Shown: piece after piece, positions 3,774 to 55,328 of the stretch
Layout of the letters: each line of letters starts with the position of its first letter
Position numbering within the stretch: position 1 is the stretch's first letter
NCBI GenBank assembly: GCA_963728825.1
Contig: CAVSLA010000001.1
Span: 423,886 to 487,885, forward strand
Length of the DNA: 64,000 nt
Origin: an uncultured Acidobacteriota bacterium
Lineage (GTDB): Bacteria; Acidobacteriota; Vicinamibacteria; Vicinamibacterales; CAVVIG01
Direction: 5' to 3'
Program-made: the position numbers and the translations under genes
Notes under the pieces: model-generated
Told to the model about the DNA's origin: nothing
The model's database searches: none
Seen by the model: only the letters and a program-made list of their open reading frames with translations

Positions 3774-3810
3774 GTTCACTCCGGGGGCCCCTACCCCCCG
3801 GTGATCAAAG
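3774..3810. repeat. GC-rich hairpin (REP-like) element, family A copy 1
   Basis: gttcactccgggggcccctaccccccggtgatcaaagg. The stem is CCGGGGG/CCCCCGG around a CCCCTAC loop. The element abuts the bshA start, and its minus-strand end CCGGAGTGAAC supplies the GGAG upstream of the ATG. Confidence 0.8.
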
Positions 3811-3830: not shown

Positions 3831-3869
3831 TCCTTGGTGTCCTTTGAGTCCTTTGTGTCCTTTGTGTCC
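3831..3869. repeat. 9-bp word repeat (TCCTTTGTG-type), about 4 units
   Basis: tccttggtg tcctttgag tcctttgtg tcctttgtg tcc, directly after the bshB1 stop. The same word array recurs at 48207-48244. Confidence 0.8.
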
Positions 3870-3873
3870 ATCT

Positions 3874-4584
3874 CTAAGTCACACCGCCTCGCAGCAGACT
3901 GCCCCTGACGACCGGCTCGCGAACGACGAACCCTTCCGCCCACCGCACGCCGGCGCGCGCGCCGAACTGTGCGTCGCGGCTTTCGACGAGCTGACGAAAG
4001 AGCGGCGTGTTCAGGCGCGTCGCCACCGCCCCGTCGACCGACGGCGCCTGAAACTGACTCGCGTGGCAATCGAGCGCGGCGCGTTTCTGATCGTAGTGGT
4101 CGGTGACGTCGACGACAAACGAGGGCTCGGCGGCATCATTGATGAAGTAGTAGCAGATCCATTCCGCCTTCCACGCCTCGCCCTCGGAGGCGTAGCGCCG
4201 CAGGCCCGCGTTGAACGCGGCCTCGGTGAGCACGTGGCTCGCAGCGCCGTGGTCCGGATGTCGATCGGACCAGTGCGGAATCGCAATGGTCCGCGGCCGA
4301 TGCTTCCGGATGAACGCAGCGGCCTGCGCGACATGTGACGGATCGCTCCCGATTCGGCGGTCGGGCCAGCGCAGGTTGTGACGCCACAGAGCGCCGAGCA
4401 CCAGCCGCCCCGCCTCCGCTTCGGCGAGTCGCTCCTCGATGGTGCCATTGCTGCCCATCTCGCCGGCGGTGAGATCGCACAAGCCGACCCGCAGCCCTGC
4501 GGCAGCATGGCGCGCAACCGTTCCGCCGAGACCGATCTCGATGTCGTCGGGGTGGGGACCGAAGACCAGGACGTCTACTGGCAT
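3874..4584 (-). CDS. bshB1: N-acetyl-alpha-D-glucosaminyl L-malate deacetylase (bacillithiol biosynthesis, LmbE family)
   Basis: MPVDVLVFGPHPDDIEIGLGGTVARH..GLCDLTAGEMGSNGTIEERL..SDRHPDHGAASHVLTEAAFNAGLRRY..CHASQF aligns along its length with Bacillus BshB1 (from memory). It lies upstream of bshA. Confidence 0.8.
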   Translation of the reverse strand: MPVDVLVFGPHPDDIEIGLGGTVARHAAAGLRVGLCDLTAGEMGSNGTIEERLAEAEAGRLVLGALWRHNLRWPDRRIGSDPSHVAQAAAFIRKHRPRTIAIPHWSDRHPDHGAASHVLTEAAFNAGLRRYASEGEAWKAEWICYYFINDAAEPSFVVDVTDHYDQKRAALDCHASQFQAPSVDGAVATRLNTPLFRQLVESRDAQFGARAGVRWAEGFVVREPVVRGSLLRGGVT

Positions 4585-4608
4585 GCTCGTCTAACTTTCT
4601 TCCACTGG

Positions 4609-4630
4609 CGCTGGGGCCCCACCCCCAGCG
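4609..4630. repeat. GC hairpin with the GGGG-CCCCAC-CCCC core (CGCTGGGG / CCCCAGCG stem)
   Basis: cgctggggccccacccccagcg in the bshB1 upstream spacer. Its flank aactttcttcc resembles the reverse complement of the 82-bp unit at 52502-52747. A second hairpin, CGACCCT..AGGGTCG, follows about 50 nt later. Confidence 0.65.
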
Positions 4631-4762
4631 CGTACTTACGCTGATGCCTCGCCTCGTCCCTCGACTTTGCTCGGGACGACCCTGAGCTCGTCGAAGGGTC
4701 GGATCGATCAGTCCTCGGCTCGGCATGGCCGCAGGCGCTCTGTCCTTCTCGCTCCATGTCGA

Positions 4763-5980
4763 TTATCTGTTGAACCCGAACGCTTCGTCCGCCGCATCGG
4801 CTTCGCCGAGATGATGCCGAAGCAGAACGCGGCTCGCGAGGTACGCGCCAGTCACCCCGTGACTGGCGTCGCCGAACGCGAAGAGATGGTGCGGGAAGTT
4901 GCGATGAGCCCCGAGATACGGAACGCCTTCGGCGGTGAGCGCGTACGGTGCGTCCCATCCGAACGCCGGCATGATGCCGGAAATTTCCGGATACATGGTC
5001 GACAGCTCGTACATCAGTTGCCCGGTACGCTGCACGATGGTCTTCTCCCGGAGTCGCGGCAGCACGATCGCCGCGTCCGCCCCGGCAATCAGCAGCCGAT
5101 CGTCGTCCACCCAGCGCACGATGTGTGCCGGCTCCGCAACATCGCGGATGACGAGCTCCCGTTTGCCGAGCTGGTGACGGATTCTGGCGGGCAGCGGCTC
5201 GGTCAGGACGAGATACGAGCTCTTGAGCCAGAAGTGCCGGATGAGCGACTTGAACAACTGGGTCGGCATTCCGGTCGCCACGATGATCCGCCTGGTGCGG
5301 ATGTTGCCGTCATCGAGCACGACGTCGGCGGTGCGCCGGCCGAATTTCGTCCGGATGACAGGCGTCCGCTCGAAGAGCTGCGCGCCGCGTTCGACAGCGG
5401 CGGCCGCAAGGCCGAGCGTCGCTCGATAGGGATCGAGGACTGCCCCATCCCGTGTTCGAACTCCGCCGGCGGCATGGATCGCCGCTTCCGACTGAATCGC
5501 TTTCGGGCTGAGGGACGGCGCATCAAGACCTGCGTCCTTACGGGCTTTCTGTTCCCGCGCGACGAGCGCAAGCTGCGCCGGCGTCATCGCGGCGAGCAGT
5601 GTCGACCGGGGCTCCAGATAACACTTGACGTCGAGACGCCGCAGCAGGGTCGCGAAGTCGAGTGCGGAGCGACGCCACGCCTGCCAGCCATGGCGTGCGG
5701 CCCGCAGGCCAAGCAGCTTCTGGGCGGAGAGGAAGCTGGCGCCGGGATCGTCGGATATCCAGCCGGTCGAACATGCGCTGGCACCTCGACCGATCTGCGC
5801 CGCCTCGACCAGCGCGACTTTGATGCCGGCCGCCGCGAAGGAGTACGCCGTGGCGCACCCCGTCAGGCCGCCGCCGATGATGACGACGTCGATCTCGTGG
5901 CGGCCTCGAAGGCGTGGATACGAAGGAACGCGCGACCTGGGAAAACGGTCGGTCCATGGGGAACGGCCGTATTTCGTCAT
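4763..5980 (-). CDS. FAD-dependent oxidoreductase (DAO / glycine-D-amino-acid oxidase family)
   Basis: N-terminal Rossmann motif DVVIIGGGLTGCATAYSFAAAGIKVALVE; 405 aa, a typical DAO-family length. Confidence 0.8.
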   Translation of the reverse strand: MTKYGRSPWTDRFPRSRVPSYPRLRGRHEIDVVIIGGGLTGCATAYSFAAAGIKVALVEAAQIGRGASACSTGWISDDPGASFLSAQKLLGLRAARHGWQAWRRSALDFATLLRRLDVKCYLEPRSTLLAAMTPAQLALVAREQKARKDAGLDAPSLSPKAIQSEAAIHAAGGVRTRDGAVLDPYRATLGLAAAAVERGAQLFERTPVIRTKFGRRTADVVLDDGNIRTRRIIVATGMPTQLFKSLIRHFWLKSSYLVLTEPLPARIRHQLGKRELVIRDVAEPAHIVRWVDDDRLLIAGADAAIVLPRLREKTIVQRTGQLMYELSTMYPEISGIMPAFGWDAPYALTAEGVPYLGAHRNFPHHLFAFGDASHGVTGAYLASRVLLRHHLGEADAADEAFGFNR

Positions 5981-7246: not shown

Positions 7247-7780
7247 TCACCGCCGCAGCCACTGATCGAGCCGTCCCACCAGCTCGTTCCACCTGGTTTC
7301 GTCAGCCGACACCTGGTTGAGAGCATCGCTTTCCCGGGTCCGCAGCTGCTGCAGCTGGGCGGATACCGATTCGAATTGGGTGCGCAGGTCGGTGCGATGA
7401 TGCTCGAGCGCCTGTCGGGCGTCAATGGGCGGCAGACCCCCTGGCAGCGTCAACTCTTTGGGGCTCATCTGCTCCGCTTCGGCCATCGCGCGCGAGAGGC
7501 TCTGGAATCTCGTGGTCGTCGCATCGAGCTCGCGGCGCACGGTGTCGAGCCGTCCGTTGGCTTCGGCCAACCGGCGCTGCTGGACCTCGAGCAGGCCCGT
7601 GATCGCCTGTGTCTGGATCTGTGTGTCCGCATAACGCTCGATGACATTCCGGAGCGCGCGCATCTCGTTGACGAGCTCCCTCGAAACCGCCGGCTCGACG
7701 TCCCGGCTCTGCGCCGACAGAACGACTGCCGTGAGGGCAACGACAACGCCTGCGATAACGAACGCACCTGTCTTCTTCAT
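7247..7780 (-). CDS. Secreted coiled-coil protein, function unknown
   Basis: MKKTGAFVIAGVVVALTAVVLSAQS signal peptide, then a heptad-like, Q/E/R/L-rich sequence. GGAGGAG lies upstream of the ATG at 7780; the track start at 7804 runs into the repeat. Confidence 0.5.
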   Translation of the reverse strand: MKKTGAFVIAGVVVALTAVVLSAQSRDVEPAVSRELVNEMRALRNVIERYADTQIQTQAITGLLEVQQRRLAEANGRLDTVRRELDATTTRFQSLSRAMAEAEQMSPKELTLPGGLPPIDARQALEHHRTDLRTQFESVSAQLQQLRTRESDALNQVSADETRWNELVGRLDQWLRR

Positions 7781-7798
7781 GCGAGCTCCTCCTCGATT

Positions 7799-7870
7799 GT
7801 TCACTCCGGGGGCCCCTACCCCCCGGTTTGATGCTGTTCACTCCGGGGGCCCCTACCCCGGCTTGATGCT
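7799..7870. repeat. Family A hairpin element, tandem pair (37 bp plus 35 bp)
   Basis: gttcactccgggggcccctaccccccggtttgatgct is followed directly by gttcactccgggggcccctaccccggcttgatgct. It lies between the ADOP stop and the coiled-coil gene start. Confidence 0.85.
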
Positions 7871-7877
7871 GCAGCTG

Positions 7878-10977: not shown

Positions 10978-11029
10978 CCGGGTGCCGGGTGCCGGGTGCC
11001 GCGGTGCCGGGTGCTGCGGCGCCGGGTGC
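10978..11029. repeat. 7-bp word repeat (CCGGGTG-type)
   Basis: ccgggtgccgggtgccgggtgccgcggtgccgggtgctgcggcgccgggtgc. Its reverse-complement array (GCACCCG units) is at 49031-49100. Confidence 0.8.
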
Positions 11030-40225: not shown

Positions 40226-40872
40226 ATGGCCCAGATCTTTCACCGCAGCACCAACACGATTTCCCGGGTCAGCATCTTCGGCACGCTCTTCATCGTCGCC
40301 GGGCTGCTCTGGCTGGTTGCCCAGATCCATCGCTCGTCGTGGCTCACCGATGCGCTGGTCGCCCGCGAGCAGCCGATTCAGTTCAGTCACGAGCGCCACG
40401 TCGGCGGCAACGCGATCGATTGCCGCTACTGCCACACGTCGGTCGAGGTCTCGCCATTCGCCGGCATTCCGCCGACCAAGACCTGCCTGAACTGCCACGG
40501 TGAGATTTTCGCCAACAGTCCGTTTCTGCTGCCGGTGCGAACCAGCTTCGAGTCGAACCGGCCGATCGAATGGACCCGCGTCCACGATCTGCCCGACTTC
40601 GTGCACTTCGATCACAGCATTCACGTGAGCAAGGGCATGGGGTGCACGACCTGCCATGGTCCGATCGATCGGATGGGGCTGACCTGGCAGGACAAATCGC
40701 TGCAGATGGAGTGGTGCCTGGACTGCCACCGCAATCCCGAACGCTACGTGCGACCGAAAAGCGAAGTCTTTTCCGTCGCCTATCGTCCGCCGCCCGATCA
40801 GATGGCGGTCGGACGGCGTCTGGTCGCCGAGTACGGCATTCAGAAACTACAGAGCTGCTCGACGTGTCATCA

Positions 40873-40876
<4 letters not shown>
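40226..40876 (+). CDS. actA: Alternative Complex III pentaheme cytochrome c subunit
   Basis: N-terminal TM anchor and five CxxCH motifs (CRYCH, CLNCH, CTTCH, CLDCH, CSTCH). First gene of the act cluster. Confidence 0.9.
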
Positions 40877-45374
<4,498 letters not shown>

Positions 45375-45377
45375 GCG

Positions 45378-45918
45378 ATGGCGACCCGAACGACGATCTA
45401 CGGCCTGATGGCCGAGTTCGACGACCCGAACGCCCTGGTCGCGGCGGCCTACCGCACGCAGTACGAGGGCTATCGGCGGGTCGACGCCTACTCGCCGTTT
45501 CCGATCGAAGAGCTCCACGAGGCGCTCGGCATCCACCACACGCGGCTGCCGCTCATCGTCTTCCTCGGCGGGCTCACCGGCTGCATCGGCGGCTATCTGC
45601 TCCAGGTACTGGGCGGCCGGCATCGCCTACCCGTTGAACATCGGCGGCAAGCCATTCAACGCCTGGCCGATGTTCATCCCGGTGACCTTCGAGTGCACGA
45701 TTCTCGGCGCGGCGCTGGCGGCGGTGCTCGGCATGCTGGCCCTGAACGGGCTGCCGATGCCGTACCACCCGGTGTTCAACGTCCCGCGCTTCGCGCTGGC
45801 CAGCCGCAACCGTTTCTTCCTCTGCATCGAAGCGCGCGACGCGAAGTTCAACCTCGAAGCCACGCGGCGATTCCTCGAGACGCTCGGACCGCGGGAGGTG
45901 TCGACCGTTGCCAACTGA
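45378..45918 (+). pseudogene. actD: Alternative Complex III subunit ActD, interrupted by a single extra base (frameshift) at about 45605-45606
   Basis: Frame 1 reads [64 protein letters not shown], then turns into nonsense. Skipping one G in ctccagGtactgg restores [49 protein letters not shown] (track ORF 45634..45918). This is either a sequencing indel or a true pseudogene. Confidence 0.8.
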
Positions 45919-46570
45919 AATCCTGTCGAGGACGCGGAGCAAGCAAAGGGCGCAGAGGCTGTTCAGCCTGCGCGCCTTGCGGGTCCCCTGCTCGCTCCGC
46001 GGCGCTGGCTCCCTTTGCGTCCTCTGCTCCCTCTGCGTCCTCGTCCTGGGCTGCAGACAAGATATGCACGACCAACCCACCTACACCGCGATGGAGCATT
46101 CGTCGTTTTTTCCCGACAACGCGGCGTCGCGGCCGCCGGTACCGGGGACGGTGGCGCGCAGCCAGCTGCGTGACGACGAGCTGTTGTATCGGGGCACAGT
46201 AAACGGCGAGGCGGCGGACGTGTTTCCGTTCCCGGTCGACGAGGCGGTGATGGCGCGCGGGCAGGATGTGTTCAACGCCTTCTGTTCGCCGTGTCACGGC
46301 CGCACCGGCCGCGGCGACGGCATCATCGTCCAGCGTGGCTTCACGCGGCCGCCGGATCTGACCGACGACAATGCGCGCAGCGCGCCGGTCGGCCACATCT
46401 TCAACGTCATCACCAACGGATTCGGCGCGATGCCCGATCATGCGGCGCAGGTGCAGGTCCGCGATCGATGGGCGATCGCCGCCTACCTGCGGGCGCTGCA
46501 GGTCAGCGCGTCCGCTTCGATCAACGACATTCCGGCGGCGGAACGCACGCGGCTGGAGGGCGCCCGGTAA
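45908..46570 (+). CDS. actE: Alternative Complex III monoheme cytochrome c lipoprotein
   Basis: Lipobox ..LCVLVLGC and a single CSPCH heme site. The start is uncertain: only TTG/CTG codons lie upstream of the lipobox (TTG at 45908 or 45977). Confidence 0.8.
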
Positions 46571-47778
46571 TGCGGCTCGCGCAAAGCCCCGATCGGTTCA
46601 TTCCGGAGCTGGCGCGCTACCAGCGTCAGCTGCTGATCGCGGGGGGCGCCGGCGCGGCCGTGTCGCTGGTCGGTCTGTTCATCGATCGTCGACAGTTCTT
46701 TCAGTCGTATCTGATGGCCTACCTGCTGCTGCTCGGTGCGACGCTCGGCTCGCTCGCGCTCGGCATGATTCATCAGCTGTCGGGCGGCGCCTGGGGCGTC
46801 GTGACGCGCCGGATTCTTGGCGCGGCCTCGCGCGTCCTGCCGGTGCTGACGCTGTTGTTCCTGCCGCTGCTGCTCGGCCTCCACGATCTCTACGAGTGGA
46901 CGCATGCGGAGGTCGTCGCCGCCGATCCGATCTTGAGGGGCAAGCAGCCCTACCTCAACATCCCGTTCTTCCTCGCTCGCGCCGTTCTCTACTTCGGCGT
47001 CTGGAACGCCTTCGCCTACTTCCTCAACCGCTGGTCGCTCGATCAGGATCGCAGCCCGGATCCGCGCATCGCGCGCCGCATGCAGAGGTTGAGCGGCGGC
47101 GGCCTGGTCGCCTACGTGTTGACGATGACCTTCGCGTCGTTCGACTGGGTGATGTCGCTCGATCCGCATTGGTACTCCACGATCTACGGCGTGCTCTTCC
47201 TGGGCGGACAGGCTCTGACGGCGCTCGCCTTCCTGGTGATTGCCCTGGCCTGGTTGAGCCGGCGCGAGCCGTTGAACACGATCGTGGTACCGACGCACTT
47301 TCACGACCTCGGCAATCTGATGCTGGCGTTCGTGATGCTCTGGGCCTACTTCTCGTTTTCGCAGTACCTGATCATCTACTCGGCGAACCTGCCGGAAGAG
47401 ATCACCTGGTACACGCGCCGCCTGTTCACCGGCTGGCGGGTGATTGGCATCGGTTTGGTGATCTTTCACTTCGCCGTGCCGTTTCTCATCCTGCTGTCGC
47501 GGGCGGTCAAGCGGAATCCGCAGCTGCTCGTCAAAGTGGCGATCGGCATCATCGTCGTCCGGCTGATCGATCTGTTCTGGCTGATTGCGCCGGAGCTGCA
47601 TCGCGACGGCTTCGTCATCAGCTGGCTCGACGTGCTGTTGCCGCTCTCGCTCGGCAGCGTGTGGCTCGGCTGCTTCGTGTGGCAGCTGCGCGGCCGGCCG
47701 CTGCTGCCGCTGCACGATCCGCAGTTTCACGAAGCGCTCGGGCCGATCATCGACCGGCGACAGGAGCGGCCGATATGA
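46570..47778 (+). CDS. actF: Alternative Complex III membrane subunit ActF
   Basis: [26 protein letters not shown].., polytopic. The ATG overlaps the actE stop (TAATG). The track's 46291 start is a spurious extension. Confidence 0.85.
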   Translation: MRLAQSPDRFIPELARYQRQLLIAGGAGAAVSLVGLFIDRRQFFQSYLMAYLLLLGATLGSLALGMIHQLSGGAWGVVTRRILGAASRVLPVLTLLFLPLLLGLHDLYEWTHAEVVAADPILRGKQPYLNIPFFLARAVLYFGVWNAFAYFLNRWSLDQDRSPDPRIARRMQRLSGGGLVAYVLTMTFASFDWVMSLDPHWYSTIYGVLFLGGQALTALAFLVIALAWLSRREPLNTIVVPTHFHDLGNLMLAFVMLWAYFSFSQYLIIYSANLPEEITWYTRRLFTGWRVIGIGLVIFHFAVPFLILLSRAVKRNPQLLVKVAIGIIVVRLIDLFWLIAPELHRDGFVISWLDVLLPLSLGSVWLGCFVWQLRGRPLLPLHDPQFHEALGPIIDRRQERPI

Positions 47779-48197
47779 GCGACGAACGCCAGCACCATCT
47801 CGAGTCGATCGATCAGCCGTCGGTGCATCACGAAGAAACCGACATCAACATCCGCGCTGTCTTCGGCTTCGGCGGCGGTCTGCTGGTCACGACCATCGTC
47901 GTGATGCTGGCGATGTGGGGGCTGTTTCGCTACCTCGACGGCCGGGCGGAGCGGCTCGGTGGTTCGCTCCGGCCGCTCGCGACGAATGAAGTGCGGCTGC
48001 CGCCTGAACCGCGACTGCAGATCACGCCGCGCGCCGACGCCGCCGAGTTCCGTGCGCAGGAAGACGCGCTGCTGAACGGTTACTCATGGGTCAATCGGGA
48101 AACAGGCACGGTCAGGATCCCGATCGCTGAGGCGATGAAGATGACGTTACAGCGAGGGTTGCCCGCGCGCGAGCAGCCGGCGGGTCAGCAGAAATGA
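47775..48197 (+). CDS. Small single-TM protein encoded between act and cox genes (possible ActG-like accessory subunit)
   Basis: MSDERQHH..INIRAVFGFGGGLLVTTIVVMLAMWGLF (TM) ..RLPPEPRLQ..LLNGYSWVNRETGTVRIPIAEAM. ATGA overlaps on both sides. Confidence 0.55.
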   Translation: MSDERQHHLESIDQPSVHHEETDINIRAVFGFGGGLLVTTIVVMLAMWGLFRYLDGRAERLGGSLRPLATNEVRLPPEPRLQITPRADAAEFRAQEDALLNGYSWVNRETGTVRIPIAEAMKMTLQRGLPAREQPAGQQK

Positions 48198-49135
48198 CGC
48201 GACGTTTTGTGTCCTTGGTGTCCTTGGTGTCCTTTGTGCTCCTGACATCTCCGCTCGCCGCCCAGATGAGCGGTGCCCCCAGCGCCGGATACCGCCTCGA
48301 GCCTGGAGTGGCGGCATCGGTCGTCCCGCAACCGCTGCGCGAGATCGGATTCGATCAGCGGCTCGACGAACGCGTGCCGCTGGACGTCGAGTTCAGAGAC
48401 GAGCTCGGGCAAACCGTACGGCTCGGTCAGTACTTCGGGCAGAAACCGGTCGTGCTCGCCTTCGTGTACTACGACTGTCCGATGCTCTGCACGATGGTGC
48501 TCAGCTCGATTACCAGCACGCTGGGCGTCCTGTCGCTCGATGCCGGCACGGACTTCGAGCTCGTGATGGTGAGCTTCGACCCGCGGGAAACACCGGAGCT
48601 GGCGGCGCGGAAAAAAGCGGAATATCTCGGGCGCTACGATCGACCTGGTGCCGCGGGCGGGTGGCATTTCCTCACCGGCAACCAGGCCTCGATCAGCCGG
48701 CTCACCGCAGCCGCCGGGTTCCGCTACACCTGGGACGAGGACACGAAACAGTTCGCGCATCCAGCCGGCATCGTGGTCCTCACGCCTGACGGCCGACTGG
48801 CCCGCTATCTGTTCGGCCTCGAGTTCGGTCCGCGAGACCTGCGCCTGGCACTGATCGAAGCCTCCGGTGGCCGCATCGGCACGGCGGTCGACACGGCGCT
48901 GCTCTATTGCTACCACTACGATCCGATGACCGGCCGCTACGGCCTGGTCGTGATGCGCGTGCTGCGCATCGCCGGCGCCGCCACGGTGCTGGCCCTCGGC
49001 ACATTCATTTTCGTCATGGTCAGGCGAGAACGCACCCGGCACCTACGCACCCTGCACCCGGCACCCGGCACCCCGCACCCGGCACCCGGCACCCGGCACC
49101 AGCCCCCGGCCCCCGCTCCCGACGTGAGGCAGTGA
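48194..49135 (+). CDS. sco1: SCO1/SenC copper chaperone for CuA assembly, with a C-terminal TM helix and a repeat-derived tail
   Basis: PVVLAFVYYDCPMLCTMV (CxxxC) and a downstream FAHPAG His. N-terminal VSLVSLVSFVLL and C-terminal HPAPGTPHPAPGTRH are both encoded by word repeats. Confidence 0.85.
   Translation: MTRRFVSLVSLVSFVLLTSPLAAQMSGAPSAGYRLEPGVAASVVPQPLREIGFDQRLDERVPLDVEFRDELGQTVRLGQYFGQKPVVLAFVYYDCPMLCTMVLSSITSTLGVLSLDAGTDFELVMVSFDPRETPELAARKKAEYLGRYDRPGAAGGWHFLTGNQASISRLTAAAGFRYTWDEDTKQFAHPAGIVVLTPDGRLARYLFGLEFGPRDLRLALIEASGGRIGTAVDTALLYCYHYDPMTGRYGLVVMRVLRIAGAATVLALGTFIFVMVRRERTRHLRTLHPAPGTPHPAPGTRHQPPAPAPDVRQ
48207..48244. repeat. 9-bp word repeat (GTCCTTGGT-type), second locus
   Basis: ttgtgtccttggtgtccttggtgtcctttgtgctcc inside the first codons of sco1. 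Same words as 3831-3869. Confidence 0.8.
49031..49100. repeat. 7-bp word repeat (GCACCCG-type), reverse complement of the 10978-11029 array
   Basis: gcacccggcacctacgcaccctgcacccggcacccggcaccccgcacccggcacccggcacccggcacc, lying in the last codons of sco1. Confidence 0.85.
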
Positions 49136-49136
49136 A

Positions 49137-50153
49137 ATGTGGCCCGGTACGCCGCTGTTTCCCGACACCGCCTCGACCATCGCGCCGCGCGTGGACGCGT
49201 TGTATTTCTTCCTGGTCGGCGTCGCCGCCTTCTTCTCGCTGCTGATTGCCGGCCTGATCATCTACTACGCGATCAAATTTCACCGCCGCGCCCCTGACAG
49301 CGTCGGCGCGCGCATCTCGGGCGGCCTGGTCCTCGAGATCACCTGGAGCGTCATCCCGCTGGCGATCGTGATGGTCATCTTCGTCTGGGGAGCCAGTGTG
49401 TTTTTTACGATGGCCCGTCCCCCGGCCGATACGCTGAACATCTATGTGGTCGGGAAACAGTGGATGTGGAAGTTCCAGCACCTGAACGGCGCCCGGGAGA
49501 TCAACGAGCTGCACGTGCCGATCGGCCAGCCGGTCAAGCTGATCATGACCTCGGAAGACGTCATCCACGATCTGTTCTTCCCGGCGTTCAGAGTGAAAGC
49601 CGACGTCATTCCCGGCCGCTACACCCAGATCTGGTTCGAAGCCACCCGGCCCGGCACCTATCACTTGTTCTGCGCCGAATACTGCGGCACCCGGCACTCC
49701 GGGATGATCGGCCAGGTCGTCGTGATGGAGCCGAGCGAATTCCAGACGTGGCTGAGCAGCGGTCAGGCCGAGGGGTCGCTGGCGTCCGCCGGCGGCAAGC
49801 TGTTTCGAGACCTGGCGTGCAACACCTGCCATCGCAGCGACGCCCAGGGGCGCGGTCCGGTCCTGGACGGGCTGTTTGGCAAGACGGTCACGCTCCAGAG
49901 CGGCGAGAACGTCGTCGTGGACGAAGCGTATATCCGCGAGTCGATCGTCAATCCGAACGAGAAGCTGACGGCGGGCTTTCAGCCGATCATGCCGGCCTAT
50001 CAGGGACAGGTGAACGAGGAAGGCCTGCTCGAGCTGATCGAATACGTCCGCGCGCTCGGCACCGGCGCGGCCGCGCCGGAGCTGCGGCCCGACGCCGGTG
50101 GTCCGCGGCCGGGTGAAAACACGCCGTCCCGGGGAGGAGACGTCCCCCGTTAA
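49137..50153 (+). CDS. ctaC: Cytochrome c oxidase subunit II with fused C-terminal cytochrome c (caa3 type)
   Basis: CuA site [20 protein letters not shown] and a C-terminal CNTCH heme c motif. Confidence 0.9.
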
Positions 50154-50157
50154 CCGT

Positions 50158-51772
<1,615 letters not shown>

Positions 51773-51783
<11 letters not shown>

Positions 51784-52504
51784 CACCGCCGCGGGCGCGA
51801 CCCGGCCCGGACACCACCGCCTCGACGACAGCGGCCCTGGGCACCGAAGCCTTGGCGGAGGTGGCCATCGGGCGCTGGCGCATCACTTCGACAACCTCGC
51901 CCAGCAGCAGGAAGCAGCCACGCTGGGCATGTGGGTCTTCCTGGTCACCGAGGTACTGTTCTTCGGCGGGCTGTTCGCCGCCTACTCGCTCTACCGCGCC
52001 TGGTATCCGGACGCCTTTGCCGCGGCGAGTCATACGCTGGACATCACGCTCGGCACGGTGAACACCGCCGTCCTGATCACCAGCAGCTTGACGATGGCGC
52101 TGGCGGTCCACGCGGCGCAGCTCGGCGAGCGGCATCGGCTGATGCTGTTTCTGATCGCGACGATGATTCTCGGCGGCGTGTTCCTGGGCATCAAAGGCGT
52201 CGAATACGCCCACAAGTTCACCGAGCATCACGTGCCCGGTCCCTCGTTTCACTTCGAGGAAGAGCACCTGTCAGCCCAGGCGCAGCTGTTTTTCTCGCTC
52301 TATTTCGTGATGACCGGCCTCCACGCGCTGCACATGGTGATCGGGCTCGGGATCATGGCGTGGATGCTGTGGTGGGCGTGGAACGGCACGATCGGACGTG
52401 ACTACTACAGTCCGATCGAAGTCAGCGGCCTCTACTGGCACTTCGTCGACATCGTCTGGATCTTCCTGTTCCCGCTCTTATATCTCATCGGAAGACACGG
52501 ATGA
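51773..52504 (+). CDS. ctaE: Cytochrome c oxidase subunit III
   Basis: [67 protein letters not shown]. Confidence 0.85.
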
Positions 52505-52747
52505 CGTCCTGTTCTTGATACGCGCGAGCACAACGGTGCGAGCGCGTCGGCGAGTGGGGGTGGGGCCCCACGAGAAGTAAAGTTGACGTCCTGTTCTTGT
52601 TACGCACGAGCACTGCGGTGCGAGCGCGTCGGCGAGTGGGAGTGGGGCCCCACGAGAAGTAAAGTTGACGTCCTGTTCTTGTTACGCACGAGCACTGCGG
52701 TGCGAGCGCGTCGGCGAGTGGGGGTGGGGCCCCACGAGAAGTAAAGA
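52502..52747. repeat. Tandem repeat, 3 x 82 bp, equal to a triplicated ctaE-ctaF intergenic spacer
   Basis: Units start at 52502, 52584 and 52666, each with TGACGTCCTGTTCTTG, and differ at a few positions. The first TGA is the ctaE stop, and the third unit ends at the ctaF ATG (52748). Each unit carries GTGGGG-GTGGGG-CCCCAC. Confidence 0.9.
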
Positions 52748-53041
52748 ATGTCTGACTACATCGTTCCGACCCGCACCTATTACCTGATTTTTGCCGCCCT
52801 GATGGTCGGAACCTACATCACCGTGCAGGCGGCGTTCATCGATCTCGGGGCGCTGAACACCGTCGTCGCGCTGGCGATCGCCTGCATCAAGGCGACGCTC
52901 GTCATCCTGTTCTTCATGCACGTGAAGTACAGCACGCGCCTGACCTGGGCGGTCGTGGCCGGGAGTGTCTTCTGGCTGGGAATCCTGCTGACGCTGACCT
53001 TCAGCGACTACCTGACACGGGCCTGGCGGACTTTCGGATAG
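52748..53041 (+). CDS. ctaF: Cytochrome c oxidase subunit IV (prokaryotic COX4_pro family)
   Basis: 97 aa, three TM helices, with the ..CIKATLVILFFMHVKY signature. Confidence 0.8.
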   Translation: MSDYIVPTRTYYLIFAALMVGTYITVQAAFIDLGALNTVVALAIACIKATLVILFFMHVKYSTRLTWAVVAGSVFWLGILLTLTFSDYLTRAWRTFG

Positions 53042-53219
53042 CGTCAGGCATAGCCGCAGCGCGCCTGTCAGTTTTCAGGCGGGCGATTATACTGTCGGCG
53101 TTTCCCGTGATTGATCCCACGTCCACCCTCGAAGCCACCGTCGCCCTGCTCGAAGCGACCCTCGAGGCGACCAGGGAGCTTGGGCAACGCATTCGCGACG
53201 TCCACGCTCCAACCGCCCG

Positions 53220-55328
53220 ATGAGGCGAGCGGAGGCGGTCCTCCTCGCAACGCTGGTCGGCGCGTGGATCGCGCCGCCAGCCGCGAAGGCAGCGCTGAAT
53301 GTCACCCACGGCCTCACTATTCAGCCGTTCACCAACCTGAATCAGGCGGGCACCCGATTCTTTGGCTACCTCACGGTTCTGCGGGGGGGCCTTTTCCGGT
53401 TCGAGACACGATCGGCCGCGCCGTCGACGCTTCAGGTCGACGGGAGCACCGCACCCGAACGATCGATGGCGGCGGGTGCGCATTTCCTGCTGATCGAATT
53501 GACGCACGACGGTCAGCCGCCAGCGTTTGAACTGCTCTGGGCGAAGGACGACGGAGCGTTGGCGTCAGTCCCGCTCTGGCGGTTGACGACCTCGCGAGTC
53601 GACACCTGGCGGTTGCTCCTGTTGCGGAGTCTCGAATGGGCACGAGTGGCGGTGACGCTTCTTGCCCTGGCCTACGTGCTGGTTCGCCGGCGGGCGCCGC
53701 TGTCCAATGCCGCACGCCTTCGTCCGCAAACCGCCGCGTTCGGGTTGTTCGTGCTGCTGGCCGTCATGCACACCTGGCCGCTGGCGGCAGACCCGGCCGG
53801 CCTGTCGCGCCACGACAACAGCGATGCGATGCTGAACGAGTGGGCGCTCGGGTGGGTGGCGCATCAAATCGTGCGCGACCCGCTCGATCTGTTTGATGCG
53901 AACATCTTTTTTCCGGAGCGCAACACCCTCGCCTACTCGGAGGCCATGCTGGTGCAGGGCGCTCTCGGCGCACCGCTCATCTGGGCCGGCGCGTCCACCC
54001 TCTTCGCCTACAACCTCGTCCTGCTGGCGGGTTTCGCGTTGACCGGGTGGGCGACCGCGCTCGTCGCCGCGCGCTGGACCGGCGATTGGACCGCCGGACT
54101 GGCCGCCGGCATCGTCGCGGCCTTCAATGCCCACACGTTGACCCGGCTGCCTCACCTCCAGGCGCTGCACGTCGAATTCCTGCCGCTGGCCCTGGCCGCG
54201 CTCGATTCGCTGTTGCGCGAGCCGCGGGCGGGGCATGCGATGCGGCTTGCCGGGTGGTTCACTCTGCAATCGCTCGCCTCGATTTACCTGCTCGTCTTCT
54301 CAGCATTCGCCCTGACCGCCGCGGCATTGGCGCGCCCGCGCGAGTGGAGCGGACGCCGCTTTCGACCGGTGGCATTCTTATTCGTGGCGGCGGCCGCGCT
54401 CAGCTTCGTCCTGCTGCTGCCCTATCTTCAGGCGTATTGGCAGGTCCATCGCGAACAGGGGGCCGTGCGGCCGCTCGCGGATGTCGAGCTGTACTCCGCG
54501 TCGTGGAACGACTATCTATCGAGCCCATCACGCGTTCATTTCAACACCTGGAGTTACCGGTGGTTCACGGGAACGGCGCTGTTCCCCGGATTCGTCGCGC
54601 TCGGTCTCGCCGCGCTGGCAGTTGGCCGCGGCATCGCGTGGCGGAATCCGCGGGCCCGGATGTGCCTGGCATTCGGTCTCTGCGGCCTGGTGTTGTCGTT
54701 TGGCACCAAGGTGCCCGGCTACGCCGGGCTGTATGAAATTCTGCCGCCTCTTCAGGCGGTCCGCGCCGTGTCCCGGTTCGGATACCTGACGGTGATGGCG
54801 ATCGCGCTGCTCGCCGCGTTCGGGCTGGCAGCGCTCCGCGCACGTGTGCCGCCGCGGCGATGGCCGGCCATCGCCTCCGTACTGCTCGTGGCGCTCACAC
54901 TGGAACCGCTCGTCGCGCCCATTCACCTCACCCGCTTCAGCGGCATCCCGTCGATCTATGAGGCGGTCGCCGACGACCCTGCCGCGGTCGTCGCCGAACT
55001 GCCGATGCCGGGCGGATTCGGCTGGTTCGGCAACGCGCGCTACGTGCTGAACTCGACGAAACATTGGCGGCCGTTACTGAACGGTTACAGCGGCTTTGCG
55101 CCCGCCAGCTTCCACGAACATGTCTCGGCGCTCGCCGGCTTTCCGCAGCCGGCCGCCATTGCGGCGCTGCAGGCGACCGGCGTGACGCACGTGTTCGTTC
55201 ACCTGGACGGCTATACGCCGGAACAGCGATCGCTGATGGAGAACGACGCGTCGCTCACGAGGATGCGGGCTGAGGATCGTACCGTGCTGTACCGCGTGAC
55301 TCAGCGGTCGGCGAGGCAGGCAGAGTGA
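53220..55328 (+). CDS. Large polytopic membrane protein with an N-terminal beta-rich extracytoplasmic domain (possibly a GT-C-like glycosyltransferase); function unknown
   Basis: 702 aa. The N-terminal ~110 aa are soluble-looking (..FFGYLTVLRGGLFRFETRSAAPSTLQVDG..), followed by more than 10 hydrophobic helices and a C-terminal soluble domain. Confidence 0.55.
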   Translation: MRRAEAVLLATLVGAWIAPPAAKAALNVTHGLTIQPFTNLNQAGTRFFGYLTVLRGGLFRFETRSAAPSTLQVDGSTAPERSMAAGAHFLLIELTHDGQPPAFELLWAKDDGALASVPLWRLTTSRVDTWRLLLLRSLEWARVAVTLLALAYVLVRRRAPLSNAARLRPQTAAFGLFVLLAVMHTWPLAADPAGLSRHDNSDAMLNEWALGWVAHQIVRDPLDLFDANIFFPERNTLAYSEAMLVQGALGAPLIWAGASTLFAYNLVLLAGFALTGWATALVAARWTGDWTAGLAAGIVAAFNAHTLTRLPHLQALHVEFLPLALAALDSLLREPRAGHAMRLAGWFTLQSLASIYLLVFSAFALTAAALARPREWSGRRFRPVAFLFVAAAALSFVLLLPYLQAYWQVHREQGAVRPLADVELYSASWNDYLSSPSRVHFNTWSYRWFTGTALFPGFVALGLAALAVGRGIAWRNPRARMCLAFGLCGLVLSFGTKVPGYAGLYEILPPLQAVRAVSRFGYLTVMAIALLAAFGLAALRARVPPRRWPAIASVLLVALTLEPLVAPIHLTRFSGIPSIYEAVADDPAAVVAELPMPGGFGWFGNARYVLNSTKHWRPLLNGYSGFAPASFHEHVSALAGFPQPAAIAALQATGVTHVFVHLDGYTPEQRSLMENDASLTRMRAEDRTVLYRVTQRSARQAE

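Follow-up and report, generated by a model that had tools for sequence, protein, structure and literature searches.

The ctaE–ctaF spacer and its three repeat units

The 64,000-nt stretch of contig CAVSLA010000001.1 analysed here, referred to throughout as the window, comes from an uncultured soil bacterium of the Vicinamibacterales (Acidobacteriota) and carries an alternative complex III (ACIII)-like gene set followed by SCO1, coxII, coxI, ctaE and ctaF, all on one strand (40570–53041, +). Adjacent open reading frames (ORFs) in this string overlap or abut (43959/43962, 49135/49137, 50098/50153 and 51773/51783), the sole adjacent pair with a long spacer being ctaE and ctaF, which encode subunits III and IV of cytochrome c oxidase and are separated by 243 nt. 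The spacer is a tandem array: three 82-bp units lie head to tail at 52502–52747, from the ctaE stop codon to the base preceding the ctaF ATG (Tandem Repeats Finder, TRF: 52502–52746, period 82, 3.0 copies, 96% matches, 0 indels, score 455). Three is the minimum copy number, as identical extra copies could have collapsed in assembly. The features of the junction are as follows.

51773–52504, +: ctaE, cytochrome c oxidase subunit III (Pfam COX3, E=9e-19), whose TGA stop at 52502–52504 forms the first three bases of unit 1
52501–52504, +: ATGA, an ATG overlapping the ctaE stop, which opens a five-codon dead-end ORF (ATG ACG TCC TGT TCT TGA, 52501–52518)
52502–52583, +: repeat unit 1, the most diverged (unit-specific A17, G23 and AA31–32), 93.9% identical to unit 2
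52584–52665, +: repeat unit 2, set apart by an A at position 58, in a hairpin stem
52666–52747, +: repeat unit 3, 98.8% identical to unit 2, its AAAGA end abutting the ctaF ATG
52583–52744, +: predicted 53-codon ORF spanning units 2 and 3, with a TTG start at junction 1 behind a copy of the tail
52748–53041, +: ctaF, cytochrome c oxidase subunit IV, intact (Pfam COX4_pro, E=2e-12), 89% identical to its best metagenomic homologues

A gap-free alignment of the three units leaves 76/82 columns invariant, the variable ones being columns 17, 23, 31, 32, 58 and 82. Units 1 and 2 differ at five of these (17, 23, 31, 32 and 58) and units 2 and 3 at two (58 and 82), while unit 1 differs from both of the others at four internal positions, with five differences in each pair. 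The divergence is therefore nested, with unit 1 on one side and units 2 and 3 together on the other, and the four internal differences of unit 1 indicate that the copies made by the first duplication have had time to accumulate changes. The unit borders are 5-nt direct repeats (ATGAC at 52501–52505, TTGAC at 52583–52587 and 52665–52669, ATGTC at 52748–52752). Both TTG codons open predicted ORFs: the first ORF, at 52583–52744, is in frame with ctaF and has its TAA stop 3 nt before the ATG of that gene, and the second, from the TTG at 52665, runs for 40 codons and crosses the ctaF start out of frame. Since ctaF is intact and its product 89% identical to the closest homologues, the gene is presumably expressed; an exact-protein look-up of the window CtaF matched no record.

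Much of this architecture had been described in a first-pass annotation of the same DNA, and that description holds. The unit starts it gave (52502, 52584 and 52666) and the near-identity of the units agree with TRF and with the gap-free alignment; ORF coordinates place the ctaE TGA at the start of unit 1 and the ctaF ATG directly after unit 3, which supports its proposal that the unit equals the complete ctaE–ctaF spacer; the ends of units 1 and 2 do mimic the ctaF junction, the internal junctions being AAAGTTGACG and the final one AAAGAATGTC; and the units are contiguous, with no unique spacers between them, so that the array was correctly set apart from CRISPR arrays. Two further ideas about the unit were rejected: copying from flanking coding DNA, since alignment with the 3′ end of ctaE and the 5′ end of ctaF was no better than for shuffles, and a hidden 41-bp sub-period of two half-units, which also did no better than shuffles.

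Among 79 representative genomes with a ctaE–ctaF pair, the spacer was at most 20 nt in 47/79, often with overlap of the two genes, and the longest was about 176 nt, so that the 243-nt spacer of the window exceeds all of those seen. None of the 79 spacers held anything resembling the 82-bp unit, and no other copy of the full unit was found in the window, in 98 fetched loci (designated here by L numbers) or in the GTDB representative genomes. The closest relatives are metagenomic, with CtaF 85–89% identical to that of the window. The ctaE–ctaF junctions of individual contigs were:

L086–L090: GTGA overlap
P0002 contig: 4-nt overlap
L094: TAGcATG, 1-nt spacer
L092: TGAtcGTG, 2-nt spacer
L093: 66-nt spacer, unrelated
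L082–L085: unrelated AT-rich 92-nt hairpin repeat

No relative has the unit, and the closest either overlap by 4 nt or keep the genes 1–2 nt apart; with their junctions at −4 to +2 nt, the window spacer is a lineage-specific gain. It does away with the ancestral stop/start coupling geometry of the two genes. The ATGA at 52501–52504 is probably a relic of an ancestral ctaF start coupled at −4, to judge from the GTGA overlap in L086–L090 and the 4-nt overlap in the P0002 contig.

By comparison of these sequences, the ctaE–ctaF junction is ancestrally tight and a hotspot for unrelated, lineage-specific inserts. Hairpin-forming repeats unrelated to the 82-bp unit are found there in L082–L085 (about 1178–1269 in L082), L001 (2883–3000), L013 (2822–3000), L020 (2922–3000) and L081 (130–265); many of these repeats are AT-rich and heptamer-based, for example TGCAGATTGCAGATTTAAGATT...AATCTTAAATCT. 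In L081, ctaF is preceded by a different gene on the opposite strand and not by ctaE.

A dispersed hairpin family near start codons

Each unit folds into two hairpins, at unit positions 19–46 (28 nt) and 53–70, followed by an unpaired tail, GAGAAGUAAAG. The first-pass annotation had reported the second of these; the 28-nt hairpin is a feature beyond it, and the unit, when compared by BLAST with the window and every fetched locus, gave no relatives of this hairpin elsewhere. The second hairpin carries an A·C mismatch in unit 2, where a G-to-A change weakens the stem. The elements of unit 3, with the corresponding positions in the other units, are:

52684–52711, +: hairpin 1, ACGCAC-GA-GCAC-UGCG-GUGC-GA-GCGCGU (RNAfold); also at 52520–52547 (unit 1) and 52602–52629 (unit 2)
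52718–52735, +: family hairpin, GUGGGG / loop GUGGGG / CCCCAC; also at 52554–52571 (unit 1) and 52636–52653 (unit 2, with the mismatch)
52736–52747, +: tail GAGAAGTAAAGA, which is unpaired in single-unit folds and with which the last unit presumably provides the ribosome-binding region of ctaF
52714–52750, +: 37-nt block GCGAGTGGGGGTGGGGCCCCACGAGAAGTAAAGAATG, comprising the hairpin, the purine-rich tail with its in-frame TAA, and the ctaF ATG; matches unit 1 of the molybdoenzyme-operon array of L091 and L095–L097 at 100% identity

The 3′ 37 nt of the unit belong to a dispersed hairpin family, of the form NNGGGG-GTGGGG-CCCCN'N' with a purine-rich tail. A relation to other hairpins of the window had been suggested beforehand, and the distribution of GGGGCCCC upholds it: 8 sites occur where 1.8 are expected, 8/8 are intergenic and 7/8 lie in hairpins of the family. 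In total the window holds seven copies at four loci in 64 kb, the three loci other than ctaF being:

4608–4631, −: single A-type hairpin, GCGCUGGGG/GUGGGG/CCCCAGCGC, between co-directional genes, 23 nt before the start codon (ATG at 4584) of a gene for a PIG-L deacetylase
3781–3801, −: B-type hairpin, CCGGGGG/GUAGGGG/CCCCCGG, then AGTGAAC, 7 nt before the ATG (3773) of a GT4 glycosyltransferase gene
7798–7871, −: TRF array of two tandem 37-bp units with B-type hairpins at 7806–7826 and 7843–7861, in the gap from the stop codon of a gene for a MacB-like permease (7878) to the start codon of a hypothetical gene (ATG at 7780)

All of these copies lie in co-directional intercistronic spacers in sense orientation, with the last hairpin 7–25 nt from the downstream ATG (25 nt in the case of the 7798–7871 array). 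The A-type tail invariably carries TAA-NNN-ATG. The pairs that close the stem vary from copy to copy (GU/AC, GCU/AGC, GC/GC, GCGCU/AGCGC and CCG/CGG), which is suggestive of selection for the hairpin as read from these few sequences. A stronger claim of covariation was dropped, as the formal count yields only one compensatory substitution among the A-type copies.

Outside the window, a metagenome scan with the 23-mer core of the family, GTGGGGCCCCACGAGAAGTAAAG, recovered one contig only, L091, from a Vicinamibacterales metagenome-assembled genome of a different population (62% GC, against 66% in the window). Here three tandem units of 42–44 bp, each composed of GATGCGAG, the hairpin and GAGAAGTAAAGAATG, lie between the gene for a 2Fe-2S subunit and the start, encoding a twin-arginine translocation (TAT) signal, of the gene for a molybdopterin subunit. 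The first of these units is identical to window positions 52714–52750 at 37/37 nt, ATG included. The L091-type array was identical across the three assemblies with readable DNA, a fourth contig has equal, 150-nt gene spacing, and a 93%-identical relative of the locus lacks the array and has a 4-nt spacer in its place. A degenerate copy of the family occurs in L011, 12 nt before a DinB-like ATG, and the family is thus known from six loci: four in the window, L091 and L011. Family hairpins were absent from about 470 kb of other relatives' DNA, a scan of viral contigs for the core found nothing, and a protein search for spurious translations of further arrays, made with concatenated frame translations, returned nothing at E up to 10.

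The spacer that precedes the PIG-L gene (4585–4765, −) has a counterpart in L011 (4394–4560, −), between two DinB-like genes: the two share an identical block, GCGCCTGCGGCCATGCCGAGCCGAGG (4713–4738), as well as the family hairpin. With different genes on their flanks, these common features may represent a second dispersed element or a conserved leader; the spacer has no Rfam match.

Origin of the array and alternative explanations

In a point not made by the first-pass annotation, the 3′ half of the unit copies a dispersed element to which the putative ribosome-binding site (RBS) and the ATG belong, and this places the array with interspersed repeats of the kind represented by mycobacterial interspersed repetitive units (MIRUs) and repetitive extragenic palindromic (REP) sequences. 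MIRUs are units of 40–100 bp that form gene-oriented tandem arrays inside operons, their ends overlapping the flanking stop and start codons; they have GC-rich inverted repeats and short flanking direct repeats, appear to have inserted at start codons and are absent at the homologous sites of relatives (PMC3184786, PMC12548453). Three 77-bp MIRUs, for example, lie between senX3 and regX3 (PMC4213456). The array in the window is likewise a direct tandem of 3 x 82 bp within an operon, oriented as ctaE and ctaF, that stretches from the upstream stop to the downstream start, with a family block that takes in the ATG. It has GC-rich internal inverted repeats and direct repeats at its borders (ATGAC/TTGAC/TTGAC/ATGTC), it is a filled site where L086, L092 and L094 have empty junctions, and its element recurs at other intercistronic sites, the last unit apparently supplying the downstream initiation region. 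Unlike MIRUs, it is hosted by the Acidobacteriota (Vicinamibacterales); only the 3′ ~40 nt of its unit are dispersed (four window loci, L091 and L011); no copy-number polymorphism, as seen in MIRUs that are variable-number tandem repeats (VNTRs), was detected, the L091-type array being invariant in the assemblies compared; and it lacks one ORF per unit coupled at −4, having instead the five-codon dead-end ORF and the 53-codon ORF over two units. The L091 array does show per-unit ORFs, with spacings of +3, −4 and +3.

The REP sequences and bacterial interspersed mosaic elements (BIMEs) of Enterobacteria and Pseudomonas, such as REP325 in yjdMN and those of malE–malF, are also short, GC-rich, lineage-specific stem-loops, dispersed over transcribed intergenic sites and often clustered in operons; the present family likewise consists of 18–24 nt hairpins with 6–9 bp stems, all copies being intergenic. 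REP sequences bear at one end a GTAG or CGTC tag that stays unpaired (PMC3733652), whereas the family has no such terminal tag and is flanked by GCGAG / CGAG; GTAG occurs solely inside the B-type loop, and CGTC 6 nt upstream, in the window units only. Unlike BIMEs, the family arrays are all head-to-tail and in sense, with no inverted dimers, and unlike REP sequences the family lies beside the start codon of the following gene and not at the 3′ end of the preceding one, carries an RBS-like tail, and is unaccompanied by a gene for a REP-associated tyrosine transposase (RAYT; IS200/IS605-like Y1 transposase) among the roughly 40 ORFs of the window. An ordinary tandem duplication or minisatellite would share the exact 82-bp period, the lack of indels, the flanking microhomology and the nested divergence of the units; it differs in that part of the unit here recurs, likewise in tandem, in an unrelated operon of another population. 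The array adds a new member to the interspersed intercistronic repeats, its likeness to MIRUs being one of architecture. In the literature searched, no interspersed intercistronic repeat has been described from this phylum.

We therefore regard it as probable that the array is a MIRU/REP-like interspersed intercistronic repeat, the product of lineage-specific insertion and amplification, whose last copy supplies the RBS of ctaF. The sequences establish the array, the vacant sites of relatives, membership of the family, the position close to start codons and the branching order of the units; how the element spread, in what order events took place and what they do to expression we infer as follows. 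A segment of about 82 bp would have inserted at the ctaE stop and ctaF start, at a junction that formerly overlapped or abutted; its 3′ ~40 nt would be the dispersed Vicinamibacterales element (a 6–9 bp G/C hairpin with a GU(G/A)GGGG loop, a purine-rich tail and an ATG), and its 5′ half a second hairpin. Slippage or unequal exchange, acting twice, would then have amplified the segment in place to three direct copies, first setting unit 1 apart and later splitting units 2 and 3, and the short direct repeats that bound the units probably favoured this. Transcribed within the ACIII–SCO1–caa3 gene string, the array would now offer its last copy as the translation-initiation region of ctaF, in place of the lost stop/start coupling, while the upstream copies would be passengers that add hairpins and decoy TTG starts. 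Any effect on the relative expression of CtaE and CtaF, whether through barriers to 3′ exonucleases or through partial terminators, would be incidental and no conserved function. Of the earlier view of a recent and unstable duplication, the duplication is essentially right, relatives' junctions of −4 to +2 nt marking the spacer as gained in this lineage; to call it recent and unstable overstates the case, given the divergence of unit 1 and the invariance of the L091 array.

Several points weigh against this account of the origin. The family is documented at six loci only. The 5′ half of the unit has no relatives in anything searched, so that insertion of the element explains only half of the unit. 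No transposase Pfam match or RAYT gene is present among the window ORFs, and mobility is read only from the contrast of filled and empty sites. A clean duplication model requires an additional A-to-T change at the internal junctions. Finally, covariation in the seven A-type copies amounts to one compensatory substitution and one paired C-G insertion, a result matched by 86/500 shuffles; what mainly supports the hairpin is that it recurs with varied closing pairs, B-type copies included.

The array itself is ordinary selfish or neutral repeat biology, and the more notable part is the start-proximal hairpin/RBS family behind it. A bolder and decidedly tentative proposal is that Vicinamibacterales carry a hitherto undescribed mobile ‘portable translation-initiation cassette’, consisting of a ~40-nt hairpin, an RBS and TAA-NNN-ATG, which would insert at the start codons of coupled junctions, multiply in tandem and replace the coupling, as a convergent counterpart of MIRUs in another phylum, unrelated to them in sequence. 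Should the family prove to be dispersed to the extent that the window suggests, no MIRU/REP-like interspersed repeat would have been described before it from the Vicinamibacteria, an abundant and poorly studied soil lineage. The family could then provide natural VNTR-type markers for strain typing in metagenomes and an explanation for assemblies that break at operon junctions, and the locus would constitute a natural experiment in which translational coupling of the 1:1 subunits of a respiratory complex has been replaced by an autonomous initiation region.

Of the alternatives to an inserted and amplified repeat, the one that survives best, though we think it unlikely, is a selected intercistronic RNA module, in which the stacked hairpins would set the CtaE:CtaF ratio as 3′-exonuclease barriers stabilising the upstream coxII–coxI–ctaE message, as partial, Rho-assisted attenuators before ctaF, or as both. 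REP and BIME stem-loops can stabilise upstream mRNA and attenuate readthrough (bioRxiv 10.64898/2026.03.23.713779; PMC3733652), and the REP325 array of E. coli yjdMN acts as such a stabiliser and attenuator (bioRxiv 10.64898/2026.03.23.713779). Going by REP arrays, the hairpins could plausibly affect mRNA decay or readthrough here too, albeit with no support from conservation at this locus; the sense orientation of all family copies within co-directional gene pairs is in keeping with a role in RNA, as are the compensatory substitution and the paired insertion that preserve the stem, and the whole array folds better than shuffles (z = −2.1). Single units do not: their folds of −29 to −30 kcal/mol score z = −0.2 to −0.7 against dinucleotide shuffles at 66% GC. 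The hairpin that the first-pass annotation called strong is present in every unit, with the mismatch in unit 2, and its strength has to be qualified in the light of these single-unit folds.

The same annotation had proposed an mRNA-stability or attenuation module, and this proposal fares poorly. The array is absent from all relatives, the closest of which encode the same 1:1 complex across a junction of −4 to +2 nt, and the G-to-A change in unit 2 weakens its stem. There are no terminator-like sites in 51500–53500, the hairpins being followed by the tail and not by a U-tract, and a consensus scan of the spacer found no internal promoter or terminator in the units. Rfam 15 gave no match in the window at gathering score, and only chance-level matches at E up to 10 in 52400–52850. 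With three, two and one units, the RBS/AUG region of ctaF has a predicted pairing of 0.62, 0.57 and 0.62, so that no structural effect of copy number on the ctaF start, and on the accessibility of its RBS, is predicted from folding one unit as opposed to three. A dedicated regulatory module in the oxidase operon is unsupported, with no conserved structure and no sign of a conserved regulatory device.

Somewhat less likely again is a ribosome relay of the kind by which MIRUs are thought to act (PMC12548453), in which translated short ORFs within the units would melt the hairpins, stop beside the next start and pass ribosomes on to ctaF, making insertion nearly harmless. The three predicted mini-ORFs of L091, with one hairpin each, end at just such distances from the next ATG, the TTG ORF at 52583–52744 stops immediately before ctaF and in its frame, and the A-type tail always has its TAA three nucleotides from the ATG. 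The window array fits this less well: 82 is not a multiple of three, which precludes a design of one ORF per unit, the ATGA-coupled ORF ends after five codons, and the ORF from the TTG at 52665 passes the ctaF start out of frame. The loci are few, moreover, and the geometry of these predicted ORFs could reflect chance or common descent.

Two further explanations are very improbable. An assembly artefact, in which a locus with one or some other number of 82-bp copies was mis-expanded, would have a classic cause in tandem repeats below read length, but the units are distinguishable (5, 5 and 2 differences), which would require reads from three copies and fixes their order, and independent assemblies of different samples yielded the analogous three-unit array in identical form. 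Equally poor is an element acting at the DNA level, with copies multiplying its sites, either as a protein site at the perfect 12-bp palindrome GTGGGGCCCCAC, which occurs three times, or as a G-quadruplex formed by the G-runs of adjacent units (two G4-5 runs per unit): the palindrome degrades in other copies (GTGGGGCCCCAG, GTGGGGCCCCGC) while the distal 5′ arm keeps its pairing with the 3′ arm, which favours a single-strand hairpin, strict sense orientation is unexpected for a symmetric DNA site, and the G-runs adjoin complementary C-runs.

Neighbouring genes and other repeats

The ACIII-like set at the head of the gene string, in which 45374–46291 and 47778–48194 carry no gene assignment, includes the following members.

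40570–43962, +: gene for a 4Fe-4S subunit
43959–45374, +: NrfD-like gene
46291–47778, +: gene for a further membrane subunit

Other short tandem repeats were found in the window. Nine-base-pair repeats occur in an intercistronic spacer (TCCTTTGTG, x4.3 at 3831–3869) and at the start of the SCO1-like ORF (GTGTCCTTG, x3.8 at 48209–48243). The C-terminal tail of that ORF contains a heptamer microsatellite, GCACCCG x12 (49032–49115, +), just 5′ of the coxII ATG (49137), and the reverse complement of this heptamer, CCGGGTG, is present seven times at 10978–11029 (+). With its 7-nt period inside an ORF, the microsatellite would shift the frame upon a change in copy number.

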